64,000 nucleotides of DNA from a virus. Made by a program: the position numbers and the translations under genes. A model generated the notes under the pieces. That model had not been told where the DNA came from and searched no databases. It saw only the letters and a program-made list of their open reading frames with translations. Positions 2,912-56,611 of this stretch are shown in pieces; the first letter of the stretch is position 1, and every line of letters begins with the position of its first letter. The stretch lies in IMG/VR virus record IMGVR_UViG_3300013901_000001. One strand, given 5' to 3'.

Positions 2912-3174
2912 AGTGTACTGGTAGGTGTTATGTTGGCATTAAAGTCAATAATTCAATAAAGCAAAATGCAGAACAGGAAAAATAACTAAAAATTGATTTT
3001 AAAGCTGACGCAATGCCTATCAGTACAAAAGGCATTTTCAAGTGTCTAGTAGGTAAGTTGATTTCTTACCAAAACACTACAGAACAGCAAACTACAGAGC
3101 AGAAAACTATAATGCAGAACAGCGTAGCAAAAAATAGATAAACCACATAGATTTTGACTTACCTGTTAGGCACT
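2912..3174. repeat. intergenic repeat cluster: 18-19 nt motif (two direct, one inverted copy) plus four T(G/A)CAGA(A/G)CAG boxes
   Basis: AGTGTACTGGTAGGT 2912-, AGTGTCTAGTAGGTAAGTT 3041-3059, inverted GACTTACCTGTTAGGCACT 3156-3174; boxes at 2967, 3078, 3093, 3113. Confidence 0.6.
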
Positions 3175-3200
3175 TGATGATGCAAAAGAAAGGAGAAAAA

Positions 3201-3878: not shown

Positions 3879-3892
3879 AAAGGAGTTTTTTG

Positions 3893-4120
3893 ATGAGAGT
3901 TATAAGTCAGGACGGAACACTTGATATTCCATATGAAGGTCATATATTCGGTGCAAGCACGGAAGAAAATTGCATAATAGCGGTACATTTTAAAAACCCT
4001 AGCCCATGTATGGATTGGTATTCTACGCAAGAAAAAGCACTTAAGGCTCTTAAAATGTTGCGCGAAGCGCGTAAAAACGGATGCGTAGTATTTCAGTTTT
4101 CAAAGGAAGATGAGGTGTGA
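3893..4120 (+). CDS. hypothetical protein
   Basis: AAAGGAG 7 nt upstream of ATG 3893. Confidence 0.5.
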   Translation: MRVISQDGTLDIPYEGHIFGASTEENCIIAVHFKNPSPCMDWYSTQEKALKALKMLREARKNGCVVFQFSKEDEV

Positions 4121-4122
4121 AA

Positions 4123-4479
4123 ATGAAGATTATTGAGGGAAAAGAAAAAGAATACAAGGAATGGTACGACAAAAACAGCGATTCTTATAGCAGAGCGTGT
4201 TTTACATTCGCTGAAAGATGGGCGGGACTTTTGGAAGAAAAAATAGACAACTCTTCCGATTGTCCGATGAAGGTAATTGTCGATAACGCAAAACAATTAA
4301 GTGATGAAGCAAACACAGAAAGAATCACGGGATTTATGTATGGTTGTTCTGTTAATATTCTATCAAGAGTGTGGAAATACGGTGATGAATTAAGAATGTG
4401 GCACAATGGAAAATACAATTATCAGGGCGAAGGAACTGTAAACCCGGCTATTCTTACGGTTGGTGGCAAAGATGATTAA
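4123..4479 (+). CDS. hypothetical protein
   Basis: GAGGTG upstream of ATG 4123; overlaps previous stop. Confidence 0.5.
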   Translation: MKIIEGKEKEYKEWYDKNSDSYSRACFTFAERWAGLLEEKIDNSSDCPMKVIVDNAKQLSDEANTERITGFMYGCSVNILSRVWKYGDELRMWHNGKYNYQGEGTVNPAILTVGGKDD

Positions 4480-5176
4480 TCTGAAATGCTTATCTTCCGG
4501 AAGTAAAGGAAATTGCTATCTTCTGGAAGCTGATAACGGAGAAGTCCTTATCATTGATGCCGGAATACCAATCATGGATATTAAGCGTGGTCTGAACTGG
4601 AATGTGAGAAGTGTAGTCGGTGCGGTTATTACGCACCGGCACACAGACCATAGTAAAAGCATTGATGATTTACGGCACATGGGAATAAGAGTTGTTGCAC
4701 CGTATGAATCCGGAAACGTAAAGTCCATGAGTTTTTCACTGGGAAGTTTTAGAATACAGGCTTTTGATGTTTCGCACAACGGCTGTTGGAATAACGGATT
4801 TCTGATTAAGACTTCGGACGGACAGAAAATCTTGTATATGACCGATTTGGAGTACTGCCCGTATTCTTTCCGGAAGCAGAGCGTAGACCATATGCTTATC
4901 GAGTGCAATTACATGAAATCACTGGTTGACACGGACGCTCCGAATTACGTCCACAAGATTCGAGGTCACTGTGAACTGGAAACGACAAAAGGAATTGTCA
5001 AGGAGAATGCGACAGATAGCCTTGTAAACGTTATATTGTGCCATTTAGGACGTGATACTTGCGAAGAGGACAAAGTTATCGAAGAAGTGAAAAAGATCGT
5101 TCCTAGAGTCATTGTGGACGTTGCGAAAGGCGGCAAGGAATGGATTTTAAGAAAGGTCGGTGAGTGTCCGTTTTGA
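4472..5176 (+). CDS. metallo-beta-lactamase-fold hydrolase (possible recombination nuclease)
   Basis: HRHTDHS = HxHxDH motif; sits between the RecT-like gene and SSB. Confidence 0.7.
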   Translation: MINLKCLSSGSKGNCYLLEADNGEVLIIDAGIPIMDIKRGLNWNVRSVVGAVITHRHTDHSKSIDDLRHMGIRVVAPYESGNVKSMSFSLGSFRIQAFDVSHNGCWNNGFLIKTSDGQKILYMTDLEYCPYSFRKQSVDHMLIECNYMKSLVDTDAPNYVHKIRGHCELETTKGIVKENATDSLVNVILCHLGRDTCEEDKVIEEVKKIVPRVIVDVAKGGKEWILRKVGECPF

Positions 5177-7989: not shown

Positions 7990-8556
7990 ATGAAAGTAAA
8001 AAGAACAGTAACAATGAAAGTTAGCCATTTTGGGGTTGGAGACCAGATTACCGTAAAACTTCCAGAATACGGAAAGTTTACGGCTATGGCACATGAGATC
8101 ACGGACAAAGGAACATTATTTATCTTCGATGATTGTGTTTGCGAAAGATGGATGAACAAAGAAAATACGAATGAAGGTGGATATTTGGAATCTGACCTTA
8201 GAAAGTTTGTAACACAGGAGTTGCTAAAGGCATTTCCAGATAAACTGCTTGTAAGGATGGTAAAGGACGATAACGGAGATCTACTTTCCATTCCGACTTA
8301 CGGACAGGTTTTGGGTAAAGACTGGGACGATGAGTGGGATGAGAAAAACATTGAGATCGACAAGAGAGAACAATTGCCACTGATGCAGAAAAGAAAGAAC
8401 CGGATTGCAGATTTACAAAACGAATGGACATGGTACTGGTTGCAAAATAAAGTCCGGTCGTCGTCTCACTTCGCTCGCGTCGATGGCGATGGCCGTGCGG
8501 CCAACTACGGCGCGTCTGGCTCCGGCGGGGTTCGTCCGGCTTTCCTAATCAAGTAA
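7990..8556 (+). CDS. DGR target protein 1 (C-type-lectin-like variable C-terminus)
   Basis: GGAGG then ATG 7990; ends ...WYWLQNKVRSSSHFARVDGDGRAANYGASGSGGVRPAFLIK; 3' end matches the TR. Confidence 0.85.
   Translation: MKVKRTVTMKVSHFGVGDQITVKLPEYGKFTAMAHEITDKGTLFIFDDCVCERWMNKENTNEGGYLESDLRKFVTQELLKAFPDKLLVRMVKDDNGDLLSIPTYGQVLGKDWDDEWDEKNIEIDKREQLPLMQKRKNRIADLQNEWTWYWLQNKVRSSSHFARVDGDGRAANYGASGSGGVRPAFLIK
8453..8538 (+). repeat. DGR variable repeat VR1
   Basis: Gap-free match to TR 56391-56476; 17 of 18 differences are at TR adenines. Confidence 0.85.
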
Positions 8557-8564
8557 TCATTAAT

Positions 8565-8585
8565 CCGCGCCCCTTGTGGGCGTGG
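8565..8585 (+). promoter_or_regulatory. GC-rich hairpin downstream of VR1 (DGR homing-associated type)
   Basis: CCGCGCCC-CTTGT-GGGCGTGG, 8 bp including one G-T pair, 27 nt after the VR. Confidence 0.7.
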
Positions 8586-8621
8586 AAATGGAAGTAAATT
8601 GAAGATTAATGGAGGTAAACC

Positions 8622-8930
8622 ATGAAATATTTAATTGAATTAGAGCCAATCAAAGGAACAAACCTTTATAAGGCGAAGGGATTTAACACACTGGTTTTTG
8701 ATGAATACGGATTGCAACAGCTTACACCGGTTGAAGAGTTTCATAGGATTCCGGTAGTCGGAGATACCATAAGAACAGAAAACGGAACCACCCTTTATGA
8801 ATTTAGAGGTTACGACGAAAACGGAAGAACCAATGCGGTAAATATAACAAATGGATCGTATGTGAATTTGAGAAGCGACCATATCATCGTTGTAGACGAT
8901 AAAACTAATCCGGAAAAAATAGAGTGCTAA
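8622..8930 (+). CDS. hypothetical protein
   Basis: GGAGG upstream; 102 aa. Confidence 0.5.
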   Translation: MKYLIELEPIKGTNLYKAKGFNTLVFDEYGLQQLTPVEEFHRIPVVGDTIRTENGTTLYEFRGYDENGRTNAVNITNGSYVNLRSDHIIVVDDKTNPEKIEC

Positions 8931-8946
8931 AGGAGAACGATGCAGA

Positions 8947-9531
8947 TTGAGTTATCAAGATATAAGAAAGCAAAAGGCGATAGAGCAGAAGAACCGGAAA
9001 CGCCTGTTGGAAGTTAACGGGAGCCTTGATGATAGTAGCGGAATTTACTTTTTGACACGCACGGACGAAAACGGCATTAAATACGCCTACATCGGACAGG
9101 CAAAGCACATTCTCACAAGGCTTGCACAGCACCTTGTCGGTTATCAGCATATCGACCTCTCGTTGAAGTCTCATGGTTTGTATTCTGTTGATAATATTTA
9201 CGGTTGGAAGATTGGGTTTCTGCATTTTCCGTTAGAAAAACTGGACGAAAAAGAACAATATTACATAAGGCAGTATGCAGTGAATGGTTATCAGCTTCGG
9301 AACAAAACCGGTGGCGGTCAAGGAAAAGGGAAAGAGAAGATTGACGAATATCGACCGGCGAAAAGCTATTATGACGGCTTAAAACAGGGCAGAAAGAACC
9401 TTGCGAGGGAATTGTCCTGTATCATTGAAAAACACCTTGTTATTTCTTTGAAAGCGGAGAAACAGGGAAATAAGGTTTCACAGAAGCAGTACGAAAAGTT
9501 TATGGATTTGCTAAAGGTTGGTGATGAATGA
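8947..9531 (+). CDS. GIY-YIG domain nuclease
   Basis: GIYFLTRTDENGIKYAYIGQA... then YYIRQY and NGYQLRN. Confidence 0.65.
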   Translation: MSYQDIRKQKAIEQKNRKRLLEVNGSLDDSSGIYFLTRTDENGIKYAYIGQAKHILTRLAQHLVGYQHIDLSLKSHGLYSVDNIYGWKIGFLHFPLEKLDEKEQYYIRQYAVNGYQLRNKTGGGQGKGKEKIDEYRPAKSYYDGLKQGRKNLARELSCIIEKHLVISLKAEKQGNKVSQKQYEKFMDLLKVGDE

Positions 9532-12716: not shown

Positions 12717-13412
12717 GTGAAAGGAAAACGAACGTTTGACATAAAGCTTGTTAGTTCCGACGCTTTTCTTAATATGCCGATATCTGCACAATGTTTATTC
12801 TTCCACCTTTGCATCAGGGCAGACGATGAAGGATTTGTTGACCGTGTAAAAAGCATTATAAAACAGTGCGGTGCTACGGATGAAGATTTGGAAGTGTTGA
12901 AGAAAAAGAGATACGTTCTTACATTTCCAGAATCGAATGTCATCGTGATTAAACACTGGAAACTTCACAATCTGATTGACAAGGACGAGTTTGAACCTAC
13001 GGTATATGCCGAGGAAAAGTCAAAACTGTACGAAAAAGAGAACGGTGCTTATACCTTTGATTCACGCAAGGCTGAAAAGTTGAGTGAAAAATTGAGTATC
13101 TGTGAACGGAAAACTCAATTAGATACTGTAAAAGAAGTGATTTCCTATTTAAACGAGAAATGCGGTACGAAATACCGTTACTCCACGCTTGCTAATCAGA
13201 GAGGAATCGTTGCAAGGCTTAATGAGGGAAATTACACCGTTGAAGATTTTAAGGCAGTGATTGATAAAAAGGTGGCTGATTGGGGCAATAACCCTACAAT
13301 GTGCACCTATTTACGACCGGAAACTTTGTTCGGAAACAAGTTTGAAAGCTATCTTAATCAGTTATCTTCTTCCGGAAAAACTGAATTTGACGAATGGGGT
13401 GATTGCCGTTGA
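12717..13412 (+). CDS. phage replisome organiser-like protein
   Basis: N-terminal SDAFLNMPISAQCLFFHLCIRADDEGFV and C-terminal VISYLNEKCGTKYR...ETLFGNKFESYLNQ pattern; GTG start after AGGAG. Confidence 0.6.
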   Translation: MKGKRTFDIKLVSSDAFLNMPISAQCLFFHLCIRADDEGFVDRVKSIIKQCGATDEDLEVLKKKRYVLTFPESNVIVIKHWKLHNLIDKDEFEPTVYAEEKSKLYEKENGAYTFDSRKAEKLSEKLSICERKTQLDTVKEVISYLNEKCGTKYRYSTLANQRGIVARLNEGNYTVEDFKAVIDKKVADWGNNPTMCTYLRPETLFGNKFESYLNQLSSSGKTEFDEWGDCR

Positions 13413-14035
13413 CACGTGATGAAACAATAGAAATTTTGATGATGGTTCAAGCAGCTTACCCGAATTTTAACGTACCGGACAAAAAAGTCACGGTCAACAC
13501 ATGGTTTCTCTTCTTTGAGAATTACTCGGTTGATGTGATTAAGGGAGCATTAATGGCATACATCACAAGTGATAAGAACGGATTCGCTCCGGCAATCGGA
13601 CAGATTATCGAAATTGCAGAGTCCATGACAAACGCACAGGAACTTGACAGTATGGCGGCGTGGTCTCTTGTCAGTAAGGCATTGCGAAATGGATATTATC
13701 ACGCAAGGGAAGAGTTTGAAAAACTGCCGAAACTGGTACAACAAGCGGTCGGAAGTCCGGACAATCTTCGAAATTGGAGTACATCGGATTATAGTGCGAT
13801 TGAAACCGTGATTCAAAGTAACTTCTTACGGTCTTACCGGATATGCGTTGAACGTGATAAGAAGATGCGTTGTATGCCGGAACAAATCAGAAACCAGATC
13901 GAAAACAATATACCTGTTTTTCATCTTCCGGAATCAGAACCGAAACCGATGATTGAGCAAAATAAAACGGACGGAATTTCAGAAAAAACGGAAAAGTTGC
14001 TGGAAGAGTTTAAAAGAAAGGAAATGATGAATTGA
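13403..14035 (+). CDS. putative replication accessory / helicase-loader-like protein
   Basis: Position after the replisome organiser; weak resemblance only. Confidence 0.35.
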   Translation: MPLTRDETIEILMMVQAAYPNFNVPDKKVTVNTWFLFFENYSVDVIKGALMAYITSDKNGFAPAIGQIIEIAESMTNAQELDSMAAWSLVSKALRNGYYHAREEFEKLPKLVQQAVGSPDNLRNWSTSDYSAIETVIQSNFLRSYRICVERDKKMRCMPEQIRNQIENNIPVFHLPESEPKPMIEQNKTDGISEKTEKLLEEFKRKEMMN

Positions 14036-14705: not shown

Positions 14706-15275
14706 ATGAAAGCATGGAGAAAAGTAAAAATGGAGATCAAAAACTATAAGGTCGGAGATCAGATCGCGGTGAAACTCAAAGGTTTTGGGAAATTTACGGC
14801 TACGGCGCAGAGAGTTTATGACGATGGAAAAACGCTGTTTCTTTTCGATAACTGCGTTGCAGAACGGCATATGAACGAAAACGGTTCAAATTCCGGAGGT
14901 TTTTATGAATCCGACTTATGCAAGTGGATGAATACAAAATTGGTGAAAACTTTTCCTGCTAAACTTCTTGACCGCATGATTTATACGGACGAAGAGCATG
15001 AATGTCTGCTTCGAATTCCGACAAGAAAGGAAATGTTCGGAGAGAATGAATATAGCGAAAATTACGAACCTGATTTAGACAAACAGCTTGAACTTATGAA
15101 AGACAGAAAAAATCGTGTATGCTCACTTCCTGATGATGAATATGCATGGTATTGGTTGATGAACGCGAATATCCGGTCGTCGTCTGGCTTCGCTTGTGTC
15201 CCTAGCCGTGGCACTGCGCTCACCGGCGACGCGTCTGCCTCCCTCGGGGTTCGTCCGGCTTTCCTAATCAAGTAA
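14706..15275 (+). CDS. DGR target protein 2, paralogue of target 1
   Basis: GGAGG then ATG 14706; VGDQIAVKL...GGFYESDL...WYWLMNANIRSSSGFACVPSRGTALTGDASASLGVRPAFLIK. Confidence 0.85.
   Translation: MKAWRKVKMEIKNYKVGDQIAVKLKGFGKFTATAQRVYDDGKTLFLFDNCVAERHMNENGSNSGGFYESDLCKWMNTKLVKTFPAKLLDRMIYTDEEHECLLRIPTRKEMFGENEYSENYEPDLDKQLELMKDRKNRVCSLPDDEYAWYWLMNANIRSSSGFACVPSRGTALTGDASASLGVRPAFLIK
15170..15257 (+). repeat. DGR variable repeat VR2
   Basis: 88-nt gap-free match to the TR; all 19 differences are at TR adenines. Confidence 0.9.
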
Positions 15276-15283
15276 TCATTAAT

Positions 15284-15304
15284 CCGCGCCCCTTGTGGGC
15301 GTGG
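15284..15304 (+). promoter_or_regulatory. GC-rich hairpin downstream of VR2
   Basis: Identical to the VR1 hairpin; the ~70 nt after both stops are identical. Confidence 0.7.
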
Positions 15305-15341
15305 AAATGGAAGTAAAATTAAAATTTCGGAGGTAAAGTAG

Positions 15342-16489: not shown

Positions 16490-16551
16490 ACTATTATCAA
16501 TGCACTGCCAGACGGATATTTAATTCCATTTGAAAGAGAGTGAGGTATAGC

Positions 16552-17190
16552 ATGGAATATGGATATGTTAGAGTTTCTTCTAAAGAACAAAATGAAGCTA
16601 GGCAACTTGACGCGCTACGCAAACAGGGCATAGAGGATTGTAATATCTACACGGACAAGCAATCCGGAAAAGATTTTAATAGACCAAAATACAAAACTTT
16701 ATATCGAAAATTAGGAAAAGGAGATATTTTGTACGTAAAAAGCATTGATCGTATGGGGAGAAATTACGACGAGATAATTCAAGAATGGCGTAGAATTACG
16801 AGATTCCGTGAGGCTGATATTGTAGTTCTAGATATGCCATTACTTGATACGAGACGAGGAAAGGATCTCATGGGTACATTCTTAAGTGACATTGTTTTAC
16901 AAGTTCTTTCTTTCGTGGCAGAAAATGAACGTACCAACATTAAGCAAAGGCAGGCAGAGGGAATTGCTGCAGCAAAAGCAAGGGGAGTGAAATTTGGTAG
17001 ACCACCATTGCCAATACCGGAAAACTTTTATCAGATGTACAAAGACTGGCGGGCAGGGAAAATCACAATAGAAGAAGCTGCAAAGGCTTGTAATATGTGC
17101 CCTAAGACATTTTATAGTAAAGCTGTAAAATATGAAAGAGAGGAACAAGATGAACCAGTGTTGTGGAACGTGCAAATGGCACAGTTTTGA
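16552..17190 (+). CDS. small serine recombinase (resolvase/invertase family)
   Basis: MEYGYVRVSSKEQNEARQ...SIDRMGRN catalytic domain plus C-terminal HTH. Confidence 0.85.
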   Translation: MEYGYVRVSSKEQNEARQLDALRKQGIEDCNIYTDKQSGKDFNRPKYKTLYRKLGKGDILYVKSIDRMGRNYDEIIQEWRRITRFREADIVVLDMPLLDTRRGKDLMGTFLSDIVLQVLSFVAENERTNIKQRQAEGIAAAKARGVKFGRPPLPIPENFYQMYKDWRAGKITIEEAAKACNMCPKTFYSKAVKYEREEQDEPVLWNVQMAQF

Positions 17191-29270: not shown

Positions 29271-29468
29271 TTATGCACATAAAATATATACATAGTATTC
29301 ATCGTTTTCTTTGTATTCTGCTTCAACTTTTCTGTCGCCGTCTTCTGTTACAACATCACCGTTAAGGGTGTTATAATATCCAATCGAAAGACTTTTTAAA
29401 ATCTTTCTGATATTATCGTTTATGCTTCCGGTTTTCCATTCAAACTTTCCTATATACATTTTTTCCAT
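29271..29468 (-). CDS. hypothetical protein
   Basis: 65-aa ORF, first gene of the minus-strand operon. Confidence 0.45.
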   Translation of the reverse strand: MEKMYIGKFEWKTGSINDNIRKILKSLSIGYYNTLNGDVVTEDGDRKVEAEYKENDEYYVYILCA

Positions 29469-29644
29469 ATTGTTTTATCTCCTTTTTGGTTTGTTCTTTG
29501 TTATGGTCTTATTATATTGTAGTTATGTACATAACACAATAGGCAAGTTGCACAAAGTTGTGTACATAATATTGGTTGTTTTTGATATGTACATAACATT
29601 TTAATATTGCTACAATGATACCTGATAAAAAGGAGGTATTTCTA

Positions 29645-29830
29645 ATGGCAATAACAGAAGAAAGACGAAAATATTTATACGATTACCACAAGAACAACTT
29701 GAAGCGCGTGCCGCTTGATCTGCAATTATCAGACTATGAATTACTGAAAGCAGAAGCACAAAATGCCGGGGAATCGGTAAACGGTTTTATAAAACAGGCG
29801 ATAGCCGAAAAATTGGAACGAATGAATTAG
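29645..29830 (+). CDS. ribbon-helix-helix protein
   Basis: AAGGAGG then ATG 29645; LKRVPLDLQLSDYELLKAEAQNAGESVNGFIKQAI. Confidence 0.55.
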   Translation: MAITEERRKYLYDYHKNNLKRVPLDLQLSDYELLKAEAQNAGESVNGFIKQAIAEKLERMN

Positions 29831-29910
29831 GACGGGAAACCGCCCTTTTTCTTTGCGATTCTGGACGATAACGCTATATAGAATGTTATATAACAAGATA
29901 TATAATAAGC

Positions 29911-30005
29911 TATATAATAATTCATATATGGTAATTCTTATATAGTAATTCTGTATGATATTTACTATATAATAATTCTGTGTTATAATTACTATATAGT
30001 AATTC
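29911..30005. repeat. iteron array TATATA(A/G)TAATTC x4 at ~27-bp spacing
   Basis: Copies at 29911, 29939, 29966, 29993, plus degenerate half-copies between them. Confidence 0.8.
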
Positions 30006-30036
30006 ATATATAATAATCACAACAGGAGGTTTTACA

Positions 30037-30411
30037 ATGCCATTACCAAAATACGTTAAAAATGCGCAGAATAACTATAATTCTAAGTTTGATCTTGTGC
30101 AGATTAAACTACCAAAAGGAACAAAGGAAAAGATCCGGGAAATAATCAAAGAAAATGATACTATAAGCGGATTCTGTTTAAAAGCTGTCCTAAATGCAAT
30201 CGAAAACGGGGATCAGTTCAAAAAATACGACGAAAAGAAGCAACAGGACGAACTACAAGCCATGTTGGACGCTGCCAGGGCGAGACACGCAGCCAATAAT
30301 TACGAGGACAGTGAGCAGAAGCGCAGAGACACCATCGCGGCAGCTTCGGACATCAACGAAGGACTCGCTGACTACAAGAAACCCGACCCGGAGACCTACT
30401 TAAACGATTGA
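30037..30411 (+). CDS. ribbon-helix-helix protein with charged tail
   Basis: DLVQIKLPKGTKEKIREIIKENDTISGFCLKAVLNAIE; AGGAGG upstream. Confidence 0.5.
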   Translation: MPLPKYVKNAQNNYNSKFDLVQIKLPKGTKEKIREIIKENDTISGFCLKAVLNAIENGDQFKKYDEKKQQDELQAMLDAARARHAANNYEDSEQKRRDTIAAASDINEGLADYKKPDPETYLND

Positions 30412-30723
30412 AATTCGCTTTTAACCCCTTAGGTGGATAAATTATCAAGAAAAAATTATGCTACCTTGAAACACGATGTTAAGAGTCTTTAAAGCGGTCT
30501 TTAAGGTGACGATACCACCATAAGAGAAAACCGGACAATTTTTTCTCAACCCGGCACTTTTATTCCTGATCTCTGCCCCTATTATATTTATAACAGTAGT
30601 GTATATTAAAGGTCTCTGTATGTAAATTCTTGGCTACTCACTACAGTTTAGAAAAAATATAGATTATGAGGGGGAATAATGGCCGGAGTTGCGGATGCAA
30701 CCCGGAGCGCAGCGGAACATGGA

Positions 30724-30839
30724 GGATATAAATAAACATCTTTTCAGTTTATTTATATCCGACCGAGTGATAAATAAACATCTTTTCAGTTTATTTATCA
30801 CGAGTACAGATATTGAACATCTTTTCAGTTCAATATCTG
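30724..30839 (+). repeat. three tandem perfect hairpins sharing the loop ATCTTTTCA
   Basis: Stems of 14 bp (30724-30760), 13 bp (30767-30801), 12 bp (30807-30839); the third stem has an unrelated sequence. Confidence 0.9.
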
Positions 30840-30859
30840 AACACTACTGATATACCTAA

Positions 30860-30982
30860 ACAATCTCAACGTAAATAAAGCCAATAAACTATCGTTTAGC
30901 CAATACATTGTTTTTATAACACTCTCAACGTAAATACTACTAATAACTTACCGTGTAGCCAATAACTTATATTTATAACACC
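30860..30982. repeat. two ~59-nt tandem direct repeats (CTCAACGTAAATA...TAGCCAATA...TTTATAACAC)
   Basis: Units start at 30865 and 30924; roughly three quarters identical by eye. Confidence 0.7.
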
Positions 30983-31331
30983 ATTATTTACACTGTATAT
31001 ATTATATATAAAGGGAGTGCACTTAAAACCGACAGATTGTTGACGAAAATTAGTTGTTGCATCATTTCGGTATTTAGCGTATCGTTAAATCATAAGTTGA
31101 ACATCGAAAACCTAATATCGTACAACACACATTAGTTTTACCAGTTATACAAGTTTTATTTTTGTTTGATTTACCAAAAGATTTTTACAGTTTATAGTTA
31201 CACCATTTACGATTTGATTACATTTGATTACCAAGGAAGTGTTGAGGAATGGACGCGAATATATTTCTATGCGTTTATTTCTTGATGCTTCCTTTTTGTT
31301 TACCCAAAATGCCGAGAAAGGAATCGGAACG

Positions 31332-32111
31332 ATGAGCGAAGAAAAGAAAGTTGAAGTTGTCAGTTTTGCAGATCAGGTAGAAGCCGAATTTATCCGGCTT
31401 TATCAACAGTACCGCATAGCAGACGCCCCGGAGCGAAGAGTCCCGGACATGATCGACGCTATTTGGCCGAAGATCTACAAGAAGATCTTTGAACTGGACG
31501 AGTCCGAATCCTGGATCAATTGTAGCCATACCAGATTGAGAACTTGGAGATATTTAGACGTTGAATCTGTATGTGACACCTATATAAATCTTTGCCGTGT
31601 ATATGGTGGAAAGATAAAGATTAATTCTTTCTGTGAGTTAACCGGTATACATAGATATACTTTAGATCTATGGCACGAAAAGAATGTAAATAAAACCATT
31701 ATATTTGAATTATCTGAAAAGGATATAGAAAAAGAATATAAGGAGACAGTATATATATTTAATAATATAAATGGCGAGGATGTTGTAAGGAGGCCTGAAT
31801 GGAATGAGATGAGGCTAAGTACTAAAAGAATTGACGTGCGACAAAAAATTGTCACTGCCGCCCGTGAGCAGAGCCGAAACGCAAGGTCAATTGATACCGT
31901 CGGCAATATCCAGATGAGCAACAATGACGAAGAACTCGGTTTCCTGTATGATACTAAACGGGATTTCAGAAAGGAGAGCATCAGACAGGCGTTAACGGTG
32001 GATGATTTACCAAAACTGGGAAATCTTAACAGGAGCACAGAGATACAAGATATAGTATGTAACGCAATACCGAATACTACATATACGAAAATGACAGAAA
32101 ATAGCGAATAA
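31332..32111 (+). CDS. putative terminase small subunit / DNA-recognition protein
   Basis: Opens the late region after the repeat-dense stretch; HTH-like FCELTGIHRYTLDLW; assignment by position only. Confidence 0.35.
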   Translation: MSEEKKVEVVSFADQVEAEFIRLYQQYRIADAPERRVPDMIDAIWPKIYKKIFELDESESWINCSHTRLRTWRYLDVESVCDTYINLCRVYGGKIKINSFCELTGIHRYTLDLWHEKNVNKTIIFELSEKDIEKEYKETVYIFNNINGEDVVRRPEWNEMRLSTKRIDVRQKIVTAAREQSRNARSIDTVGNIQMSNNDEELGFLYDTKRDFRKESIRQALTVDDLPKLGNLNRSTEIQDIVCNAIPNTTYTKMTENSE

Positions 32112-32338
32112 AAATAGGGTATGGTCTATTTTTACGCATGAAAAATTGTGCAATATGACTAACGAATCCGGAATGACTCCTTGACCACCAGAAGCACCCG
32201 GGAGGGGGTTACACGGGAACCGCCGAAACCGCCCACTTAGCCCCTCAACCACCCCAAAAATCAAAAAGCCACTTATCCAAAACGGATAAACAAAGCAAGG
32301 ATAATCCAATTCTTAAAAATTTTTTAAAAACAAAAAAA

Positions 32339-32348
32339 GGGGGGGGGG
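32339..32348. repeat. G10 homopolymer preceded by A7, intergenic
   Basis: Read directly. Confidence 0.9.
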
Positions 32349-32391
32349 ATGAAATGAGAAAAATCACAGAAACACATACAGGGAAAGCTCC

Positions 32392-32422
32392 AAAATAAAA
32401 GACCTCTCCGAAGAGAAGTCCT
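32392..32422 (-). terminator. intrinsic terminator of the minus-strand RHH gene
   Basis: Minus strand GGACTTCTC-TTCG-GAGAGGTC then TTTTATTTT. Confidence 0.7.
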
Positions 32423-32428
32423 TTACAA

Positions 32429-32587
32429 TTATTTCCCAATGCTTTTTAAATAAGCATCCAGGGATTTATCCAATATTTTACTCATTGGTATGCTACTTTC
32501 ATCGGAATACTCCTTTAATCTCCGGTGTATTTCCTTGTCAAGAGAACTTGAAATGAAAATACGGTTTTTTAATCTTCTGTCAGCCAT
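32429..32587 (-). CDS. ribbon-helix-helix protein (52 aa), divergent from the recombinase
   Basis: AGGAGGTGATTAC then ATG; NRIFISSSLDKEIHRRLKEYSDESSIPMSKILDKSLDAYL. Confidence 0.55.
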   Translation of the reverse strand: MADRRLKNRIFISSSLDKEIHRRLKEYSDESSIPMSKILDKSLDAYLKSIGK

Positions 32588-32713
32588 GTAATCACCTCCT
32601 TTGGTGGATTATACAATAAAATTCCATACAGTTCAATAAGCTACTTGAAATTTCATTTGAAATGCTATATACTTATAGAAAAGTACATAAGCATTTATGA
32701 AAAGGATTGAACT

Positions 32714-33298
32714 ATGAAGATTGGATATGTAAGAGTTTCAACAGTGGATCAGAATGAAGATCGACAGATTGAAGGACTTGAAAAGTATGGGATTGAAAAG
32801 TGGTACATGGAAAAGGTTTCTGGAAAAAACATGAACCGGGAACAATTACAGGAAATGCTTTCCTGCATAAAAGAAGGAGATACGGTTTACGTACATGATT
32901 TTAGCCGATTGGCAAGAAGCACCAAGGATTTGTTGGAAATTGTAGAATCCCTTAATAAAAAGAGCGTGCACCTTGTAAGCAATAAGGAAAACATTGATAC
33001 ATCTACTCCACAAGGAAAATTGATGGTGACAATGCTTGCTGCAATTTATGAGTTTGAGCGAACTAATATGCTTGAACGTCAGGCAGAGGGAATTGAAATT
33101 GCAAAGAGAAAAAAGGTTTACAAGGGAAGAAAGCCGAAAGATATTTCCAGAGAGCAAGTAATTGACGGTCTTAAGAGATACAAAGCCGGACTTGTTACGA
33201 AAAAGGATCTTGCAAAAGAAATCGGGGTTTCGATCCCCACACTTAACAAGAACTTTGATGAATTTGATTTTTGGAACAGTGAAGATGGTGAAGAATGA
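32714..33298 (+). CDS. small serine recombinase (resolvase/invertase family)
   Basis: MKIGYVRVSTVDQNEDRQ...DFSRLARS...C-terminal HTH; 194 aa. Confidence 0.85.
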   Translation: MKIGYVRVSTVDQNEDRQIEGLEKYGIEKWYMEKVSGKNMNREQLQEMLSCIKEGDTVYVHDFSRLARSTKDLLEIVESLNKKSVHLVSNKENIDTSTPQGKLMVTMLAAIYEFERTNMLERQAEGIEIAKRKKVYKGRKPKDISREQVIDGLKRYKAGLVTKKDLAKEIGVSIPTLNKNFDEFDFWNSEDGEE

Positions 33299-33441
33299 AA
33301 GTTTTTGGAAAAGAAATAAACGATGAATGTAAAAACTGCGGAAAGATTCTTGAATGCGAATTGTTCCGTCAAGGTCACGGGATTGGCGTTGAGCGTACCA
33401 ACGTATCAGAAATGGTGCGCTGCCAACTAGACCACTATCAA

Positions 33442-33514
33442 AGGGATATCGCCAAGCGGTAAAGGCACAGGATTTTGATTCCTGTATTCGTGGGTTCGAA
33501 TCCCACTATCCCCG
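33442..33514 (+). tRNA. tRNA-Gln (anticodon UUG), no encoded CCA
   Basis: Cloverleaf folded by hand: TCGCCAAGCGGTAAAGGCA D-arm, CAGGA-TTTTGAT-TCCTG, GTGGG-TTCGAAT-CCCAC. Close to my recollection of E. coli tRNA-Gln. Position 1-72 is A-C. Confidence 0.8.
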
Positions 33515-35092: not shown

Positions 35093-35265
35093 AAAAGAAA
35101 ATGGAACGGATTATTGACTTTTTGGATTCTTTTTTCTATTATCCAAAGATGAAGAGATATTTTATCAATAAGGGGTTGTTTAGCTACAATCCTTGGCAAG
35201 ATGAAAAATTTGCCAGAATAAAATATGCGTGGTGGCATTGTCATCACGGAAGATTGAGAGATTAA
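35089..35265 (+). CDS. small hypothetical protein (58 aa)
   Basis: ATGA overlap with the upstream gene; below the ORF-track cutoff. Confidence 0.35.
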   Translation: MKKKMERIIDFLDSFFYYPKMKRYFINKGLFSYNPWQDEKFARIKYAWWHCHHGRLRD

Positions 35266-35348
35266 ATCTAACGGCACAACAGATATGGTTGTTGTGCAAC
35301 AAGTCAAAATGGAGACTTCTTTTATTTTGCAAAGGAGGTCTCTTTTTT

Positions 35349-37124
35349 ATGTCTGTTGAACTCCAACAAACAGTTCAAGGGTATGAAAATTACATAAAAC
35401 AAAACGGAATTGATGCACAAGCAATAGACGCATACGTTGAAGCGTGCAATTTTGCCATAAGAAAAGAAAAAGATATTTCATACGGATTGAAATTGACTAA
35501 TCATGCTAAAAAGTTGATAGAAAATTATTGTGTTTCAAAAACCGGAGTTTCAATTTGGAAACTTGAAAAATATGCACAAGAAAATAAATCTGAATACGGA
35601 TTGATAGATCAATATTATGAACTGCTAAAACTGGAAAGCTTCTGGAAACTTGAAAGCTATATATTTTTTATGGAGCGTAAAAGACCTTGCGGAAAAAGGT
35701 TTTATTACCCAAGAAAGAAAACCTTAAAAAAGGTTTTGGACGATCTGGAAGATCTTGAAAACAGAGTTATCTCTTTTTATGGTTTATCATTGCCGTCAAG
35801 AACCGGAAAATCAACTTTATGTATCTTTTTTCTTTCGTGGATAGCATTAAAAAGACCTAACAGCCATTCCGCTATGGGAGGTCATTCCGGAATACTTGCA
35901 AAAGGATTCTATAAAGAATTAATGAATCTTTTTACGACAAACGAATATTGTTTTGCAGAATTATATTACTTCTGGCATCCGGAATATGAAAACACTATTA
36001 TACCAACAGATAAAAGCGCAGATGAATATACAATTACTTTAGGTGATCCGGATAGATTTGCAACGATTACTTGCAGAGGTATTGACGGAACATGGACGGG
36101 AGCTGTTGATGTATCAGGGGACGGATATTTGTACGTAGACGATTTAGTAAGAGACAGAGAGCATTCATTAAGTCCGTCACGTATGGAAAATACATATCAA
36201 GAGTACTTGAACAAAATGGTTGACCGAAAAAATGACGGTTCCCGTGAATTAATGGTTGGTACTTTGTGGAATGTGCTTGATCCTCTTGAAAGATTAAGAA
36301 AACAGTATGACGGAAACCCAAAATACAGATTCAGAAAGATTCCGGCGCTTGATGATAATGATGAGAGCAATTTTGACTATGAAATAAATGGATTTTCAAC
36401 AGAATACTACCGCGATATGAGAGAGAAACTTGATAAAGCAGAATGGGAAGCAAAATTTATGCAACGTCCTTTTGTACGAGAAGGACTGCTGTTTCCTACT
36501 GATGAATTAAGATATTTTAACGGAATTTTACCAGAGGGAGATTTTAGAAGAATTGGTGTTACTGATATTGCGTGGGGAGGTGGAGATAGCCTGTCGATGC
36601 CTATCGGAGCGGAATATGAAAACGGAGACGTATATATTTATGACTGGGTATTTAATTCCGGGCCAAAAGAAGTAACAATTCCTCTTGTCGTCGGAAGAAT
36701 CATGGGAAATGAGATACGACAAACAAGATTTGAGGGAAACGTTGGTGGAGATCTTTATTGCCAGTACGTAGATGAAAAACTGCAAGAACAAAATTACAAA
36801 TGCTCTTGTACAAGCAAAAAAGCGTCAAATAAAATCGAAAAATTATCCAAAATCATCGCATATTCTGGAGATATAAAGCGAAAGTTTATATTTCTTGAAA
36901 GCAAAAAGCCTACACAAGAAGAACTTGAACACGATGCAGAAATGGGAATTGTACGATACAGACGTACAGATGAGTACCAAAAAGCAATGGACGAATTGAC
37001 AATGTTTGTAAGTATTGGAGGAAATGAACATGACGATGCGGCGGACGGACTTACACAGCTTGAAATGTTCATTGAAAATCCGGCATCGGTAAAAGTAGCA
37101 AAAATTATTCAGAGTCCAATTTAA
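35349..37124 (+). CDS. terL: terminase large subunit
   Basis: AAAGGAGG then ATG 35349; Walker A SRTGKST, LYVDDLV Walker B-like, nuclease-type C-terminal half; followed by the portal gene. Confidence 0.85.
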   Translation: MSVELQQTVQGYENYIKQNGIDAQAIDAYVEACNFAIRKEKDISYGLKLTNHAKKLIENYCVSKTGVSIWKLEKYAQENKSEYGLIDQYYELLKLESFWKLESYIFFMERKRPCGKRFYYPRKKTLKKVLDDLEDLENRVISFYGLSLPSRTGKSTLCIFFLSWIALKRPNSHSAMGGHSGILAKGFYKELMNLFTTNEYCFAELYYFWHPEYENTIIPTDKSADEYTITLGDPDRFATITCRGIDGTWTGAVDVSGDGYLYVDDLVRDREHSLSPSRMENTYQEYLNKMVDRKNDGSRELMVGTLWNVLDPLERLRKQYDGNPKYRFRKIPALDDNDESNFDYEINGFSTEYYRDMREKLDKAEWEAKFMQRPFVREGLLFPTDELRYFNGILPEGDFRRIGVTDIAWGGGDSLSMPIGAEYENGDVYIYDWVFNSGPKEVTIPLVVGRIMGNEIRQTRFEGNVGGDLYCQYVDEKLQEQNYKCSCTSKKASNKIEKLSKIIAYSGDIKRKFIFLESKKPTQEELEHDAEMGIVRYRRTDEYQKAMDELTMFVSIGGNEHDDAADGLTQLEMFIENPASVKVAKIIQSPI

Positions 37125-37138
37125 ATGGGAGGCATTTT

Positions 37139-37549
37139 ATGACAACACAGGAATACTTAAGTCAGGTAGAAAGATATAACCGCATGATTAAAAACAAACT
37201 GGAAGATATTGGAAAACTTCGGGCAATGGCTACGTCCATTACTTTAAGTCCAAAAGATGTTGATGTTCAGAAAACAACAGAAAAAGATAAAATCGGATCC
37301 GTTGTTGTAAAAATTATCGACATGGAAAAAGAAGTTGACGCCCTGATTGACAAAAGATGCCGAATTATTAATCAGATTGAAAGCGTGACGGATCAGAATA
37401 TGTATGAGGTTCTTGCGCAGAGATACATAAAAAACATTCAGCCTAAGTCAATTTGTATTGAAAAAATTGGTTCGGAGAGACACATTCGCCGGATTTTAAG
37501 ATCAGCAGAGACGGAATTTGAGCGTATGTATGGAGCGGAATATATGTAA
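37139..37549 (+). CDS. possible sigma-like / ArpU-type late regulator
   Basis: 136 aa, C-terminal HTH-like IGSERHIRRILRSAETEF; weak call. Confidence 0.3.
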   Translation: MTTQEYLSQVERYNRMIKNKLEDIGKLRAMATSITLSPKDVDVQKTTEKDKIGSVVVKIIDMEKEVDALIDKRCRIINQIESVTDQNMYEVLAQRYIKNIQPKSICIEKIGSERHIRRILRSAETEFERMYGAEYM

Positions 37550-37925: not shown

Positions 37926-39461
37926 ATGCAGACAGGAAGAACCGTTTTATACACTGATGTGCCAGAAATTACATACGATAACGTTATTGAAGTCTTAAGA
38001 AAAGCAATGTCGGGGCATACAGTCAATTCTGCAAGAATAAAGTTTTTGCTTGAATATGATGCCGGATATCAGCCGATTTTAAGAAAGAAAATAGTACGTC
38101 CTGAAATTGATTGTCAATGCGTAGATAACGTGGCAAATGAAATAACAGAATTTTGGTGTGGTTTTTGTGGAGGAAATCCGATTACCTTAGTCCAGAATGG
38201 AGATAGCACTAATCCTAGAATTGCAGAAGGAATCAAGGCATTAAATAAAGAATACGATTTAGCAAAGATAAAAACCAAAACGCAAGAAACATTTCGATAT
38301 ATGTTTGTTTGCGGAATTGGCTATGTACTGATTGACGTAAATACGGAATGGAAAAAAGGAAAAAGCCATTTTACTTACGATGTTCTTGATCCTAGAACAG
38401 CATTCGTTGTTAAGTCAAGTTATTATCCGGATCACAGGGTAATGCTTGGAGTTACTTATAGACATGATGATTCATCCGGAAATACATACTTTACTTGCTA
38501 TAGCAAAGATGAGCGATATGAAATCAAGAATCAAGTAGAGCATATGGAAAGAAGCGGAGAAATCAATTTATTAGGAACCATTCCAATTATTGAATATTTC
38601 AGATCCTATGATCGTATGGGAGTATGGGAAAGACAGATTCCGGAAATGGATAACTTGAATTTAATGATATCTGATTTTTCCAATGATGTAGACCAGAACA
38701 CACAGGCTATTTTTCATTCAAACGATATAGAATTTCCTAAAGTTACTGTAGAAAATGAAGATGGAACAGTTACAGAAGAAGTTAAAAAGCCCAAAAACGG
38801 TGACTGGCTACAAACTTTTACTACGTCAGAAGGAAAAACACCAATTATTGAACCAATATCAATAGATTATGATTATTCTGGAATGCTGAATAACATACAA
38901 GTAAGAAGGCAAATGATATTGGAAAAATGCAACGTTCCACAAAGAAATGATAATTCCGGTGGAAGTACGGGAGTTGCCATGAGTGACGCTACCGGGTGGA
39001 GTCATGCGGAAATGGCAGCTTCAAAGCAGCAGATGATTATTGATTCCTGCAAAATGGAAGAAGTAGAAGTTGTTCTCGCAGCTATTAATATTTCTCAAGA
39101 AGTGGAACAGGAGAATCCACTTAGGGAACTTAGCTTGGAAGATATAGAGCCAAACATTAAACGGCAAAAAACATATGAAATGTCTACAAAAGTTAATTCT
39201 ATGGCAACTTTGTTAAGCCATGGATTTAGCCTTGAAGATGCTGTCAATTCAATTCCTTTCTTTGATGATCCAAATGAGGTTTGCTTGAGAAGCGGAGAAG
39301 GAATAAAGAAATATCAAGATAGCATATTTAATAAAACTTCACAGAATCAAGCGCAAGGTGGAGATGGAGAACAAAAACCAAACTCTGACAGGACAATGCA
39401 GGATCTTTCCGATCAGGTTTCCAATAGTCCGGTAATTGATAAGAGCCGAACAGATAAGTAG
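37926..39461 (+). CDS. portal protein
   Basis: 511 aa, immediately after the terminase region and before the head-morphogenesis gene. Confidence 0.8.
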   Translation: MQTGRTVLYTDVPEITYDNVIEVLRKAMSGHTVNSARIKFLLEYDAGYQPILRKKIVRPEIDCQCVDNVANEITEFWCGFCGGNPITLVQNGDSTNPRIAEGIKALNKEYDLAKIKTKTQETFRYMFVCGIGYVLIDVNTEWKKGKSHFTYDVLDPRTAFVVKSSYYPDHRVMLGVTYRHDDSSGNTYFTCYSKDERYEIKNQVEHMERSGEINLLGTIPIIEYFRSYDRMGVWERQIPEMDNLNLMISDFSNDVDQNTQAIFHSNDIEFPKVTVENEDGTVTEEVKKPKNGDWLQTFTTSEGKTPIIEPISIDYDYSGMLNNIQVRRQMILEKCNVPQRNDNSGGSTGVAMSDATGWSHAEMAASKQQMIIDSCKMEEVEVVLAAINISQEVEQENPLRELSLEDIEPNIKRQKTYEMSTKVNSMATLLSHGFSLEDAVNSIPFFDDPNEVCLRSGEGIKKYQDSIFNKTSQNQAQGGDGEQKPNSDRTMQDLSDQVSNSPVIDKSRTDK

Positions 39462-54948: not shown

Positions 54949-55788
54949 ATGGCAATTAATAAAGTGGAATATAGCGGAAATACATTAATTGACTTGACTT
55001 CTGACAGCGTAACACCGGAATCTTTACTTTCCGGCGTTACCGCACATGATGCGTCTGGAAATTTGATTATAGGAGAACTTAATCCGCAAAGAATATTTGA
55101 TAATGCCGGATATCACAACAGTATTTTTCGTGGAAAGAACTTGGGAACGGCTGTTCCGGAAGAACAATACGAAGCTATTTCTTCCGGAGAGTTCACGGAT
55201 TTGTATGTAGGTGATTACTGGACTTTAAACAACGTTGTTTACCGTATTGCCGGATTTGATCTGTTTTTACATACGGGGGATACAGAGTTAACAACGCATC
55301 ATGTTGTTATTGTGCCGGATAAAAATATGTACAGTCACGTGATGAATGATACAAATGTGACCACCGGCGGTTACTACAATAGCAAAATGAAACAAAGTGG
55401 TCTGACACAGGCTCTGACTACGGTAAAGGCGGCATTCGGTGAAAGCCACATAGTAAAAAGAAGAGTAATTTTAACAAATGCCACAAATGGAGATAATCCA
55501 TCCGGATGGGCGTGGTACGATACCTACATTGACCTTATGACAGAACGGCAGGTATATGGATCTCCTGCATGGGGACAGGCGGCACATAATGGATATGATG
55601 CCGGATGTGAGTATTCAAGACTTCCGTTGTTTGCACTTGCACCGGAATTTATCACAAATAGAGAATGGTATTGGCTACGAGATATCCGGTCGTCGTCTGG
55701 CTTCGCTGGTGTCTCTGGCCAGGGCCGTGCGACCGACGCCGACGCGTCTCGCTTCGGCGGGGTTCGTCCGCTTTTTTTAATCTCTTAA
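54949..55788 (+). CDS. DGR target protein 3 (fibre-attachment N-terminus plus variable lectin-like C-terminus)
   Basis: Ends ...EWYWLRDIRSSSGFAGVSGQGRATDADASRFGGVRPLFLIS. Confidence 0.9.
   Translation: MAINKVEYSGNTLIDLTSDSVTPESLLSGVTAHDASGNLIIGELNPQRIFDNAGYHNSIFRGKNLGTAVPEEQYEAISSGEFTDLYVGDYWTLNNVVYRIAGFDLFLHTGDTELTTHHVVIVPDKNMYSHVMNDTNVTTGGYYNSKMKQSGLTQALTTVKAAFGESHIVKRRVILTNATNGDNPSGWAWYDTYIDLMTERQVYGSPAWGQAAHNGYDAGCEYSRLPLFALAPEFITNREWYWLRDIRSSSGFAGVSGQGRATDADASRFGGVRPLFLIS
55683..55770 (+). repeat. DGR variable repeat VR3
   Basis: 88-nt gap-free match to the TR; 19 of 21 differences are at TR adenines. Confidence 0.9.
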
Positions 55789-55798
55789 TCGTCAATCA

Positions 55799-55815
55799 CC
55801 GCCCCATGTGGGCGG
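55799..55815 (+). promoter_or_regulatory. GC-rich hairpin downstream of VR3
   Basis: CCGCCC-CATGT-GGGCGG. Confidence 0.7.
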
Positions 55816-56388: not shown

Positions 56389-56476
56389 TATCCAGTCGTC
56401 GTCTAACTTCGCTAATGTCAATAGCAATGGCAATGCGAACAACAACGACGCGTCTAACTCCAACGGGGTTCGTCCG
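56389..56476 (+). repeat. DGR template repeat (TR)
   Basis: Non-coding; 23 adenines, variable codons AAC/AAT; matches VR1-3; ends in GGGGTTCGTCCG. Confidence 0.9.
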
Positions 56477-56611
56477 ATTTCACAACTACCTACTTGACAT
56501 AGATTCTACTGGTAGCAATGGGAAAGGAAAGGTTATCCGTTCAGCGGAAGCTGATAAAAGAAAATTCCGATATGCCGAGTTACGACAAGGTATTAGAAAC
56601 GGGGTTAAAAT

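Follow-up and report, generated by a model that had tools for sequence, protein, structure and literature searches.

The window analyzed here is a stretch of 64,000 nucleotides of viral DNA (IMG/VR record IMGVR_UViG_3300013901_000001), derived from a tailed human-gut phage with nearly all genes encoded on the + strand. At positions 30724-30839, it carries three tandem hairpins, termed A, B, and C and referred to below as the trio, which lie within a conserved non-coding spacer of 920 bp between a gene encoding a ribbon-helix-helix (RHH)-like protein (30037-30411) and the open reading frame (ORF) designated ORF259 (31332-32111). The trio is located approximately 310 nt 3' of the last early gene and 490-600 bp 5' of ORF259, and its parts are as follows:

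30724-30760, no strand assigned: hairpin A, perfect 14-bp stem with arms GGATATAAATAAAC and GTTTATTTATATCC; loop ATCTTTTCA at 30738-30746
30761-30766: A-B linker GACCGA, reading GAC(C/G)GA in every haplotype described below
30767-30801, no strand assigned: hairpin B, perfect 13-bp stem with arms GTGATAAATAAAC and GTTTATTTATCAC; loop ATCTTTTCA at 30780-30788
30802-30806: B-C linker GAGTA
30807-30839, no strand assigned: hairpin C, perfect 12-bp stem with arms CAGATATTGAAC and GTTCAATATCTG; loop ATCTTTTCA at 30819-30827

Three perfect hairpins with stems of 14, 13, and 12 bp and an identical 9-nt loop had been reported in a preliminary description of this DNA, and this is borne out by direct reading, a repeat finder, and a perfect-hairpin scan, all of which recovered A, B, and C alike. 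The accompanying statement that hairpin C has a completely different stem does not hold, since C and A have GATAT...AAC in common. The three hairpins share a 15-nt core, AACATCTTTTCAGTT, of which the window contains these three copies and no further one when up to two mismatches are allowed; the bare 9-mer ATCTTTTCA occurs once more (1252-1260, minus strand), as expected by chance. Outside the trio, the 64 kb contain no perfect stem of 12 bp or more (loop length 3-12 nt), and none arose in 20 first-order Markov simulations of the window. RNA folding yields the three hairpins from both strands (z = -7.7 for the + strand and -7.4 for the - strand), with stem stabilities of -12 to -14 kcal/mol, and DNA folding gives free energies (dG) of -9.7, -9.3, and -9.4 kcal/mol for A, B, and C, respectively. 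The A+T content of the stems is 71-86%, and the hairpins are spaced 39-42 bp from center to center.

Trio-bearing loci were identified in IMG/VR (L001-L005), ENA/JGI metagenomes (L059-L063), and Logan assemblies (L007, L010, and L127), close relatives being defined by ORF259 homologs 64-96% identical to the window protein and by at least 600 nt of upstream sequence. The trio is found at the same place in every close-relative locus with enough upstream sequence. These loci represent five haplotypes with 15 distinct hairpins (orthologous or paralogous), whose stems of 12-14 bp contain, over approximately 195 bp, neither a mismatch nor a G-U/G-T pair. The loops vary little (ATCTTTTCA, ATCTTCTCA, ATCTTTCCA, and a single ATTTTTTCA) and conform to the consensus ATCTTYYCA closed by a C-G pair, with the closing triplet AAC/GTT present in 14 of the 15 hairpins. 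When the window is compared with L007 and L010, loops and closing triplets are 96-98% identical, linkers 91%, and stem arms 52%; the G+C-rich hairpin located 5' of the trio reaches 35-44%.

The preliminary description had called the stems co-varying after comparing paralogous hairpins of one genome; orthologs reveal true covariation. In an anchored alignment, two-sided changes occur in all 14 pair columns and one-sided changes in none, and the observed covariation score was matched by none of 500 shuffles, with register shifts nowhere near it. Between close orthologs, G-C pairs have been exchanged for A-T, A-T pairs have flipped to T-A, and one 1-bp deletion has been compensated (L007_B versus L010_B); no intermediate stem state was encountered in approximately 25 contigs. 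The DNA folding energy over the 15 hairpins (-9.4 ± 0.8 kcal/mol) hints at stability tuning without being discriminating. Because the loops are 96-98% and the stems 52% identical while all 15 stems are perfect, the loop is the selected and presumably recognized part, which strongly supports the selection on a structure presenting ATCTTTTCA that had been postulated earlier. Long perfect palindromes can self-correct by intrastrand templating. As a caveat, such templating would provide instant compensation, including flips and the paired deletion, at any functional level.

In L001, L007, and L010, no reading frame is open through the trio, stops being present in all three frames; the element is therefore non-coding. 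A coding tandem repeat (HLFS peptide) was rejected on these grounds, as the window and the L002/L004 type have an open frame reading ...NKHLFSLF..., whereas in L001, L007, and L010 every frame is closed. A leader peptide, starting from a Shine-Dalgarno-like GGGGG and an ATG 5' of the G+C-rich hairpin, was dismissed because ORF length and start vary among haplotypes. Complementarity of the loop to the start of terS, the small terminase gene, extends over 9 nt in L001/L002 and is missing from the window, L007, and L010, which points to chance. The trio is thus a real, selected, hairpin-forming non-coding element, in which the loop and its closing pair are constrained.

The remainder of the spacer and the genes bounding it contain the following features:

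30037-30411, + strand: RHH124, an RHH-like protein of 124 aa, always encoded 5' of the trio
30576-30667, + strand: upstream block, with CCCCTATTATATTTATAACAGT invariant in the five haplotypes and TAnAnT at a fixed position
30683-30706, + strand: H0, a G+C-rich hairpin directly 5' of the trio, followed by an invariant AGCG
30859-30976, + strand: direct repeats of 59 bp, two in tandem and 78% alike; each has a pair of (G/T)CCAATA(A/C)-type motifs spaced by 21 bp
31057-31085, + strand: candidate sigma-A-type promoter (TTGCAT, 17 nt, TATCGT), read by eye
31233-31301, + strand: intrinsic-terminator-like long interrupted stem, then TTTTTGTTT, ending approximately 30 nt before the ORF259 start codon
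31332-32111, + strand: ORF259, probable small terminase/DNA-packaging protein of an undescribed family

The upstream block is a possible promoter or factor site, and a 14-mer from it, TTATATTTATAACA, is repeated at 30967-30980. H0 has a wholly different sequence in each haplotype and is always a hairpin, which in L010 has a perfect 12-bp stem and a 3-nt loop; after H0, some haplotypes read AGCGG or GAAGCGG, resembling Firmicutes Chi sites. The 59-bp repeats are 80-92% conserved in relatives (single copy in L002/L003) and could be iterons for the small terminase (TerS), an activator, or an initiator; between them and the promoter candidate lies an A+T-rich near-palindrome. Judged from its sequence, the element at 31057-31085 may be a sigma-A-type promoter, and its counterpart in L007/L010 (TTGCGC, 17 nt, TATGAT) occupies a conserved position. 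The terminator-like structure at 31233-31301 contains several G-U pairs, one A-U/G-C exchange, compensatory changes, and internal loops, in the manner of ordinary RNA terminators. Since it leaves no room for a promoter on its 3' side, entry to the packaging operon appears to need terminator read-through. A terminator is likewise located immediately before the terS-like gene in the distant relatives L113 and L116, which suggests regulated read-through entry for this phage group.

Across haplotypes, RHH124 shows 44-92% identity, and its N-terminal part recurs in trio-less relatives. Its promoter region (29876-30002) contains A+T-rich palindromes, with weak covariance-model matches at 29962-30002 and 29876-29915, which adjoin a TG-extended promoter (TTTACT, 17 nt, TATAAT) and are likely RHH autoregulatory operators. 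In L061 (5963-6208; CYGL01000111), an inverted partial RHH124 copy ends the contig right after the terS-like gene and is probably a fold-back assembly or amplification chimera. The trio itself could be envisaged as a set of duplex operator palindromes for RHH124, RHH71, or the Arc-like protein encoded at 32429-32587, given that three RHH genes flank the region, that RHH124 is always syntenic with the trio, and that the hairpins recur every 39-42 bp. Dimeric binding, however, predicts conserved arms and a free center, whereas the reverse is seen between diverged haplotypes (arms 52-57% identical, center 87-98%). Moreover, identical trios occur alongside RHH124 proteins 78% (L005) and 92% (L004) identical to that of the window, and compensatory upkeep of perfect symmetry serves no purpose in duplex recognition, so that we consider such operators highly improbable.

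The constraint on the loop bears equally on a passive role of the structure, as a terminator or insulator, as an exonuclease block at the 3' end of the early mRNA, or as an RNase III site. The position approximately 310 nt after the last early gene, the stability of the stems, and the orientation-independence of such a role would fit, and RNase III prefers perfect double-stranded RNA. An intrinsic terminator was nevertheless rejected, as the stems are 71-86% A+T, no T-run follows A, B, or C, and a terminator scan gave no site in 29400-32800. With no U-tract and a negative scan at the trio, and because a passive structure cannot explain why the 9-nt loop and closing pair are kept across haplotypes and in an unrelated phage, we give this explanation hardly any credence.

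The preliminary description had made its interpretation depend on the presence of the motif in relatives sharing the flanking genes. All close relatives (TerS-like protein at least 64% identical) do carry it, but it is absent from distant ORF259 relatives (34-43% identity; L113 and L115-L125) that have the same order of RHH gene, spacer, terminator, and terS-like gene. Some of the latter contain other repeats; L124, for instance, has approximately eight close copies of the palindrome TGATATCA at 949-1062, about 1.5 kb 5' of its terS-like gene, an arrangement reminiscent of the P1 pac hexamer clusters. Among INPHARED phages, blastn with 30400-31400 gave no match. A search of 4227 Rfam families, including CRISPR direct repeats, nut/put-like RNAs, and ribozymes, identified at gathering score only tRNA-Gln (33442-33514) in the window, and at permissive thresholds the segment 30300-31450 matched snoRNA/NRON at chance level only (E at least 0.37). 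In GTDB genomes, the protein scan retrieved no ORF259 relative, and a two-copy DNA pattern had two matches, neither of them a hairpin, each being a direct coding or promoter repeat. With a covariance model of the hairpin unit, no additional copies turned up in the window or in approximately 840 kb of other phage DNA; the match of the model in L095 was discarded as a chance 8-bp stem with a G-T pair. In IMG/VR, the matches to loose two-copy and single 17-mer patterns were for the most part coding repeats or "stems" of 3-4 bp, and the strict two-copy pattern returned three chance matches and one real case, L027. The distribution of the trio is accordingly narrow, comprising one gut siphophage clade and two jumbo-phage contigs.

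The single independent carrier from the IMG/VR pattern scan is a 165-kb contig (L027/L130), to which a 167-kb relative (L131) was added later; the L027 phage is unrelated to the window phage and comes from the same metagenome. At 4424-4480, L027 contains the hairpins AATCGTC/ATCTTTTCA/GACGATT and TCTTTATTC/ATCTTTTCA/GAATAAAGA, flanked on one side by a sigma-A-like promoter and a terminator-like G+C hairpin with a U-run, and on the other by the Shine-Dalgarno sequence of a tail-fiber-like gene. At 8939-8962, TTTGAGT/ATCTTTTTCA/ACTCAAA and a decayed partner precede a paralogous tail-fiber gene. Among 45 loci carrying relatives of the L027 anchor gene, hairpins were found in the two jumbo contigs only, with no added stem variation. 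The L027 tail-fiber-like genes on the minus strand at 3021-4409 and 8700-8893 contain two in-frame stops and one (TAG), respectively, in otherwise continuous N-terminal sequence typical of tail fibers, which points to stop-codon recoding, probably of TAG.

All L027 genes in this region lie on the minus strand, so that their mRNA would carry UGAAAAGAU, whereas the coding strand of the window carries the complement, AUCUUUUCA. That the sense-strand loops of the two phages are exact complements, and that the L027 hairpins abut two tail-fiber Shine-Dalgarno sequences, would fit a role of the trio as a trans-acting structured RNA, a small RNA (sRNA) or sponge with its three loops serving as seeds or protein decoys. 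In a bolder variant, the AUCUUUUCA loops may kiss the complementary UGAAAAGAU loops beside the jumbo-phage tail-fiber ribosome-binding sites, resulting in inter-phage interference. Multi-hairpin sRNAs with repeated loop seeds are familiar from Firmicutes (RNAIII, RsaE), and the window phage has lysogeny-type genes (integrase, anti-repressor). Yet no promoter/terminator pair bounds an sRNA, hairpin C is not followed by a U-run, and a common host of the window and jumbo phages is without support; moreover, with two lineages only, the complementarity may represent one DNA motif in two orientations. We therefore regard a trans-acting RNA as very unlikely.

We tentatively propose that the trio is a cis-acting loop-display docking array controlling late/packaging gene expression, which we hold to be possible, though well short of probable. 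Three copies of the 9-nt loop ATCTTYYCA, borne on perfect, A+T-rich, fast-evolving stems, would form a multivalent docking site for a putative loop-specific factor, either phage- or host-encoded. The hairpins would fold in a + strand transcript running from the RHH operon or the upstream block to terS, and/or extrude from supercoiled DNA. The loaded factor would then govern transcription past the terminator located approximately 30 nt before the terS-like gene and in this way gate the late operon. Cis control of late genes by identical loops appears to be the most economical function fitting both lineages, as the tandem hairpins of L027/L131 sit in the 5' leaders of two paralogous late (tail-fiber) genes. 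Protein-binding operators (boxB, ANTAR targets, RAT) are usually laid out as hairpins in tandem whose stems vary and whose loops are fixed, a parallel drawn by analogy only.

Several observations weigh against the docking array. The 15 hairpins contain no G-U pair, compared with several in the neighboring terminator, and A-T/T-A flips and a compensated deletion, with no wobble route, are typical of DNA palindrome dynamics. Because the loops of L027 and of the window are on opposite strands, one RNA-binding protein cannot act on both. Of the promoter candidates, the best conserved (31057-31085) is located downstream of the trio, which may thus lie outside the late leader, and relatives with the same layout of RHH gene, terminator, and terS manage without the trio. 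Finally, no candidate antiterminator was identified among the scanned window proteins. The preliminary description had listed an RNA operator or antiterminator target among its candidates; the conserved terminator before terS speaks for that part of its list, while the lack of G-U pairs and the opposite orientation in L027 speak against it. None of the three roles on that list was confirmed.

The same two features, the lack of wobble pairs and the opposite L027 orientation, favor a structure required to be perfect on both strands, as DNA (cruciform or single-strand hairpin) or as paired sense/antisense RNAs. The hairpins may act as extruded cruciforms or as hairpins formed transiently in single-stranded DNA, their loops being read by a sequence-specific loop-binding protein that is host-encoded or shared between phages; unrelated gut phages would have recruited this arrangement independently upstream of late genes. 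The stems would be kept perfect by palindrome self-templating while diverging at neutral speed. Such an element would belong to a hitherto undescribed class of structure-specific control elements in tailed double-stranded DNA phages. We treat this DNA-level version as doubtful, though worth serious consideration.

Recognition of DNA would also underlie a packaging-initiation accessory of the pac/cos type, at which the extruded or single-stranded hairpins, the 59-bp repeats, and a G+C-rich island would form the place where ORF259 assembles terminase. The case for it begins with ORF259 itself, located 490-600 bp 3' of the trio, which has no Pfam or PHROG family. It is placed as the annotated TerS of [Clostridium] innocuum phage Maintenon is, a few kb 5' of the large terminase (TerL) gene, with tRNA-Gln and small ORFs between, and some of its remote homologs weakly match GP3_package and phrog_4102 "terminase small subunit". 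An AlphaFold model from 43 sequences is all-helical with a predicted local distance difference test score (pLDDT) of 80 (40 for a 6-sequence model); it matches a "DNA-packaging protein" in BFVD (E 1e-5) and has no PDB neighbor, although the library includes the Nop/IS110/TasR folds. The family numbers approximately 50 representatives at E <1e-3 among 1.8 billion representative proteins. On the basis of synteny, the BFVD match, and the weak profile matches of homologs, ORF259 probably constitutes a new small-terminase family. The packaging or terminase role suggested in the preliminary description gains from the TerS-like appearance of 31332-32111.

Restriction of the trio to the clade with TerS-like proteins at least 64% identical is as expected if a site and its recognition protein co-evolve, iteron-like repeats and the A+T-rich palindrome adjoin the trio, and perfect Watson-Crick A+T-rich stems suit DNA extrusion. 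On the other hand, the same loop occurs at two separate tail-fiber sites in L027, which cannot be pac, and the small terminases known to us read double-stranded repeats, not hairpin loops. Nor does any contig end coincide with the trio: the distance from the trio to contig ends differs among assemblies, and L126 starts 29 nt before terS, after the terminator and 460 bp 3' of the trio. A pac/cos accessory is thus a minority possibility in our estimation.

The slot between the terS-like gene and TerL varies (window 32429-33514; L127 2528-3193; L007): the window and the L001 type have an Arc-like RHH gene, a serine invertase, and tRNA-Gln there, L127 has a T5orf172/MUG113 (GIY-YIG-like) gene instead, and L007 has small ORFs only. 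A link between the trio and the serine invertase at 32714-33298 was rejected, as the invertase is absent from the trio-bearing L002-type, L007, and L010 loci.

Single-stranded DNA could also be the substrate if the trio were a replication element, namely a single-strand initiation (ssi) signal of the G4-oric/ssoA type, a primosome- or primase-loading site, or part of an origin, read by a host enzyme on the displaced strand during rolling-circle concatemer synthesis. By analogy, three tandem hairpins recall the G4-type ssi, and the best precedent for a conserved loop on drifting stems shared by unrelated replicons of one host is ssoA; here, an unrelated phage from the same metagenome has the same loop, iterons and an A+T-rich stretch adjoin the trio, and wobble pairs are lacking. 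Replication proteins of the phage include SSB, a DnaD-like initiator, and a helicase loader, and no primase was detected among the scanned window proteins. To our knowledge, however, ssi signals are not usually required by double-stranded DNA (dsDNA) phages that have a helicase loader. The replication module (12717-14035) is 17 kb from the trio, the loops do not contain the ssoA CS-6 motif (TAGCGT), and the orientation differs between the window and L027 if replication is co-directional with transcription in both, so that we judge this role unlikely. The nick site of a HUH-type system put forward in the preliminary description is likewise weakened and was rejected as a HUH-Rep origin, with no Rep/HUH gene among approximately 50 scanned window proteins (not every small ORF was scanned). 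Compared by eye, the loop ATCTTYYCA matches none of the known nick consensuses CTTGAT, TACTACG, and NANTATTAC.

Other early genes of the window phage encode RecT, methyltransferases, and a SNF2-type helicase, and the early part also includes two serine invertases, a tyrosine integrase, an HNH nuclease, and an ORF6N-type anti-repressor. The late part begins with TerL (35229-37124) and portal (37926-39461). By TerL, the closest isolate is Maintenon (40% identity), and the other relatives all derive from human-gut metagenomes; Maintenon has the same gene order, a TerS unrelated in sequence, and no hairpins. A 90-165-bp segment occurs in four direct-orientation copies, 76-84% identical, at 8453-8619, 15166-15337, 55678-55814, and 56389-56480. 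Two of these form the 3' ends of paralogous early phrog_21980 ORFs and two lie in the tail-fiber region; the segment may represent a common C-terminal cassette or serve as a recombination substrate, the serine invertases being encoded at 16540-17190 and 32714-33298.

If the loops dock a factor that gates the late operon, the trio would be the first defined cis element of late-gene control in widespread uncultured human-gut Firmicutes siphophages, and a hairpin pull-down could yield the missing regulator. If the element acts at the DNA level, it would, N4 promoters and single-stranded DNA (ssDNA) origins aside, represent a rare case of a dsDNA phage in which a hairpin or cruciform is recognized sequence-specifically. 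Independently of function, the 15 hairpins, with approximately 50% stem divergence, flips, a compensated indel, and zero intermediates, offer a natural experiment in palindrome evolution, and the 15-nt core AACATCTTTTCAGTT with flanking complementarity is a specific marker of the phage clade.

Among known systems, lambda nut/boxB, the LoaP leader hairpin, and the ANTAR dual hairpins resemble the trio in having free stems, a fixed recognized loop, and a position upstream of a gating terminator; in the window, the conserved terminator (31233-31301) is downstream of the trio, as is the promoter candidate (31057-31085). Assignment to lambda nut/boxB was rejected, as the + strand loop is the pyrimidine-rich 9-nt AUCUUYYCA on stems of 12-14 bp, and not a GNRA-like loop of 5 nt on approximately 5 bp. 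Positions 2-5 of the minus-strand loop (GAAA, GAGA, and GGAA) are all GNRA-compatible and resemble the boxB loops GAAAA/GAAGA, but that strand is not the expected late transcript. Further differences from boxB, which has a 5-6-nt loop on a stem of approximately 5 bp, are the 9-nt loops, the perfect stems of 12-14 bp, the three copies, and the lack of wobble. Neither boxA nor an N-like protein was recognized in the window, and the ORF at 37139-37549 has only sub-threshold Phage_antitermQ/DUF1492 matches.

G4 oric and ssoA are also hairpin clusters, with three hairpins in G4 oric. In ssoA, found in Firmicutes rolling-circle plasmids, drift of the stems contrasts with conservation of the loop motif CS-6 and one other block, and unrelated replicons of the same hosts have this loop motif in common. 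The trio differs in showing no sequence similarity to either, in being short and perfect with identical loops, and in its carrier, a tailed dsDNA phage in which nothing but ordinary replication points to an ssDNA stage. Like lambda cosB, with its three R sites, and the pac sites of P1 and SPP1, the trio is a multi-copy non-coding element 5' of a small terminase gene, here the TerS-like ORF259 that it adjoins, and is accompanied by repeats and A+T-rich DNA. In contrast, what is read at the known sites is duplex repeats, none of these sites consists of perfect hairpins whose unpaired center is conserved, and the trio motif also occurs away from packaging genes in the second phage.

TIGR-Tas arrays, too, are phage-borne and built of tandem units of approximately 36 nt that contain palindromic segments and, at the center, a 9-nt loop, these figures for tigRNA units and the largely phage-borne nature of TIGR systems having been described previously (PMC12045711; bioRxiv 10.64898/2026.09.09.750476). 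With units of 33-37 nt, a 9-nt loop, and a minus-strand UGAAAAGAU that, like TasR loop repeats, is rich in A and has UG at its start, the trio might suggest a degenerate or novel TIGR-like guide array. In a TIGR unit, however, box C/D flanks two spacers of 8-12 nt that are unpaired, whereas the arms here are fully self-complementary, and the trio has no spacer pairs, linker box C/D, or Nop effector and shows compensated point changes rather than spacer turnover. Its loop ends with GAU, not CCA, the linkers GACCGA and GAGTA do not repeat loop-end motifs, and no Nop/PF01798 (Tas) match was obtained among the approximately 50 scanned window proteins. The missing spacers and missing Tas protein effectively refute TIGR membership, leaving a guide array with a negligible likelihood.

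The trio thus has no match among described families, either in sequence or by covariance model, and falls short of the features that define each testable family; the statement in the preliminary description that the hairpins cannot be assigned to a known class is still correct. By analogy, their layout nonetheless resembles a familiar theme, that of hairpin arrays offering a fixed loop to a partner, and would stand further from known systems if the element acts at the DNA level.

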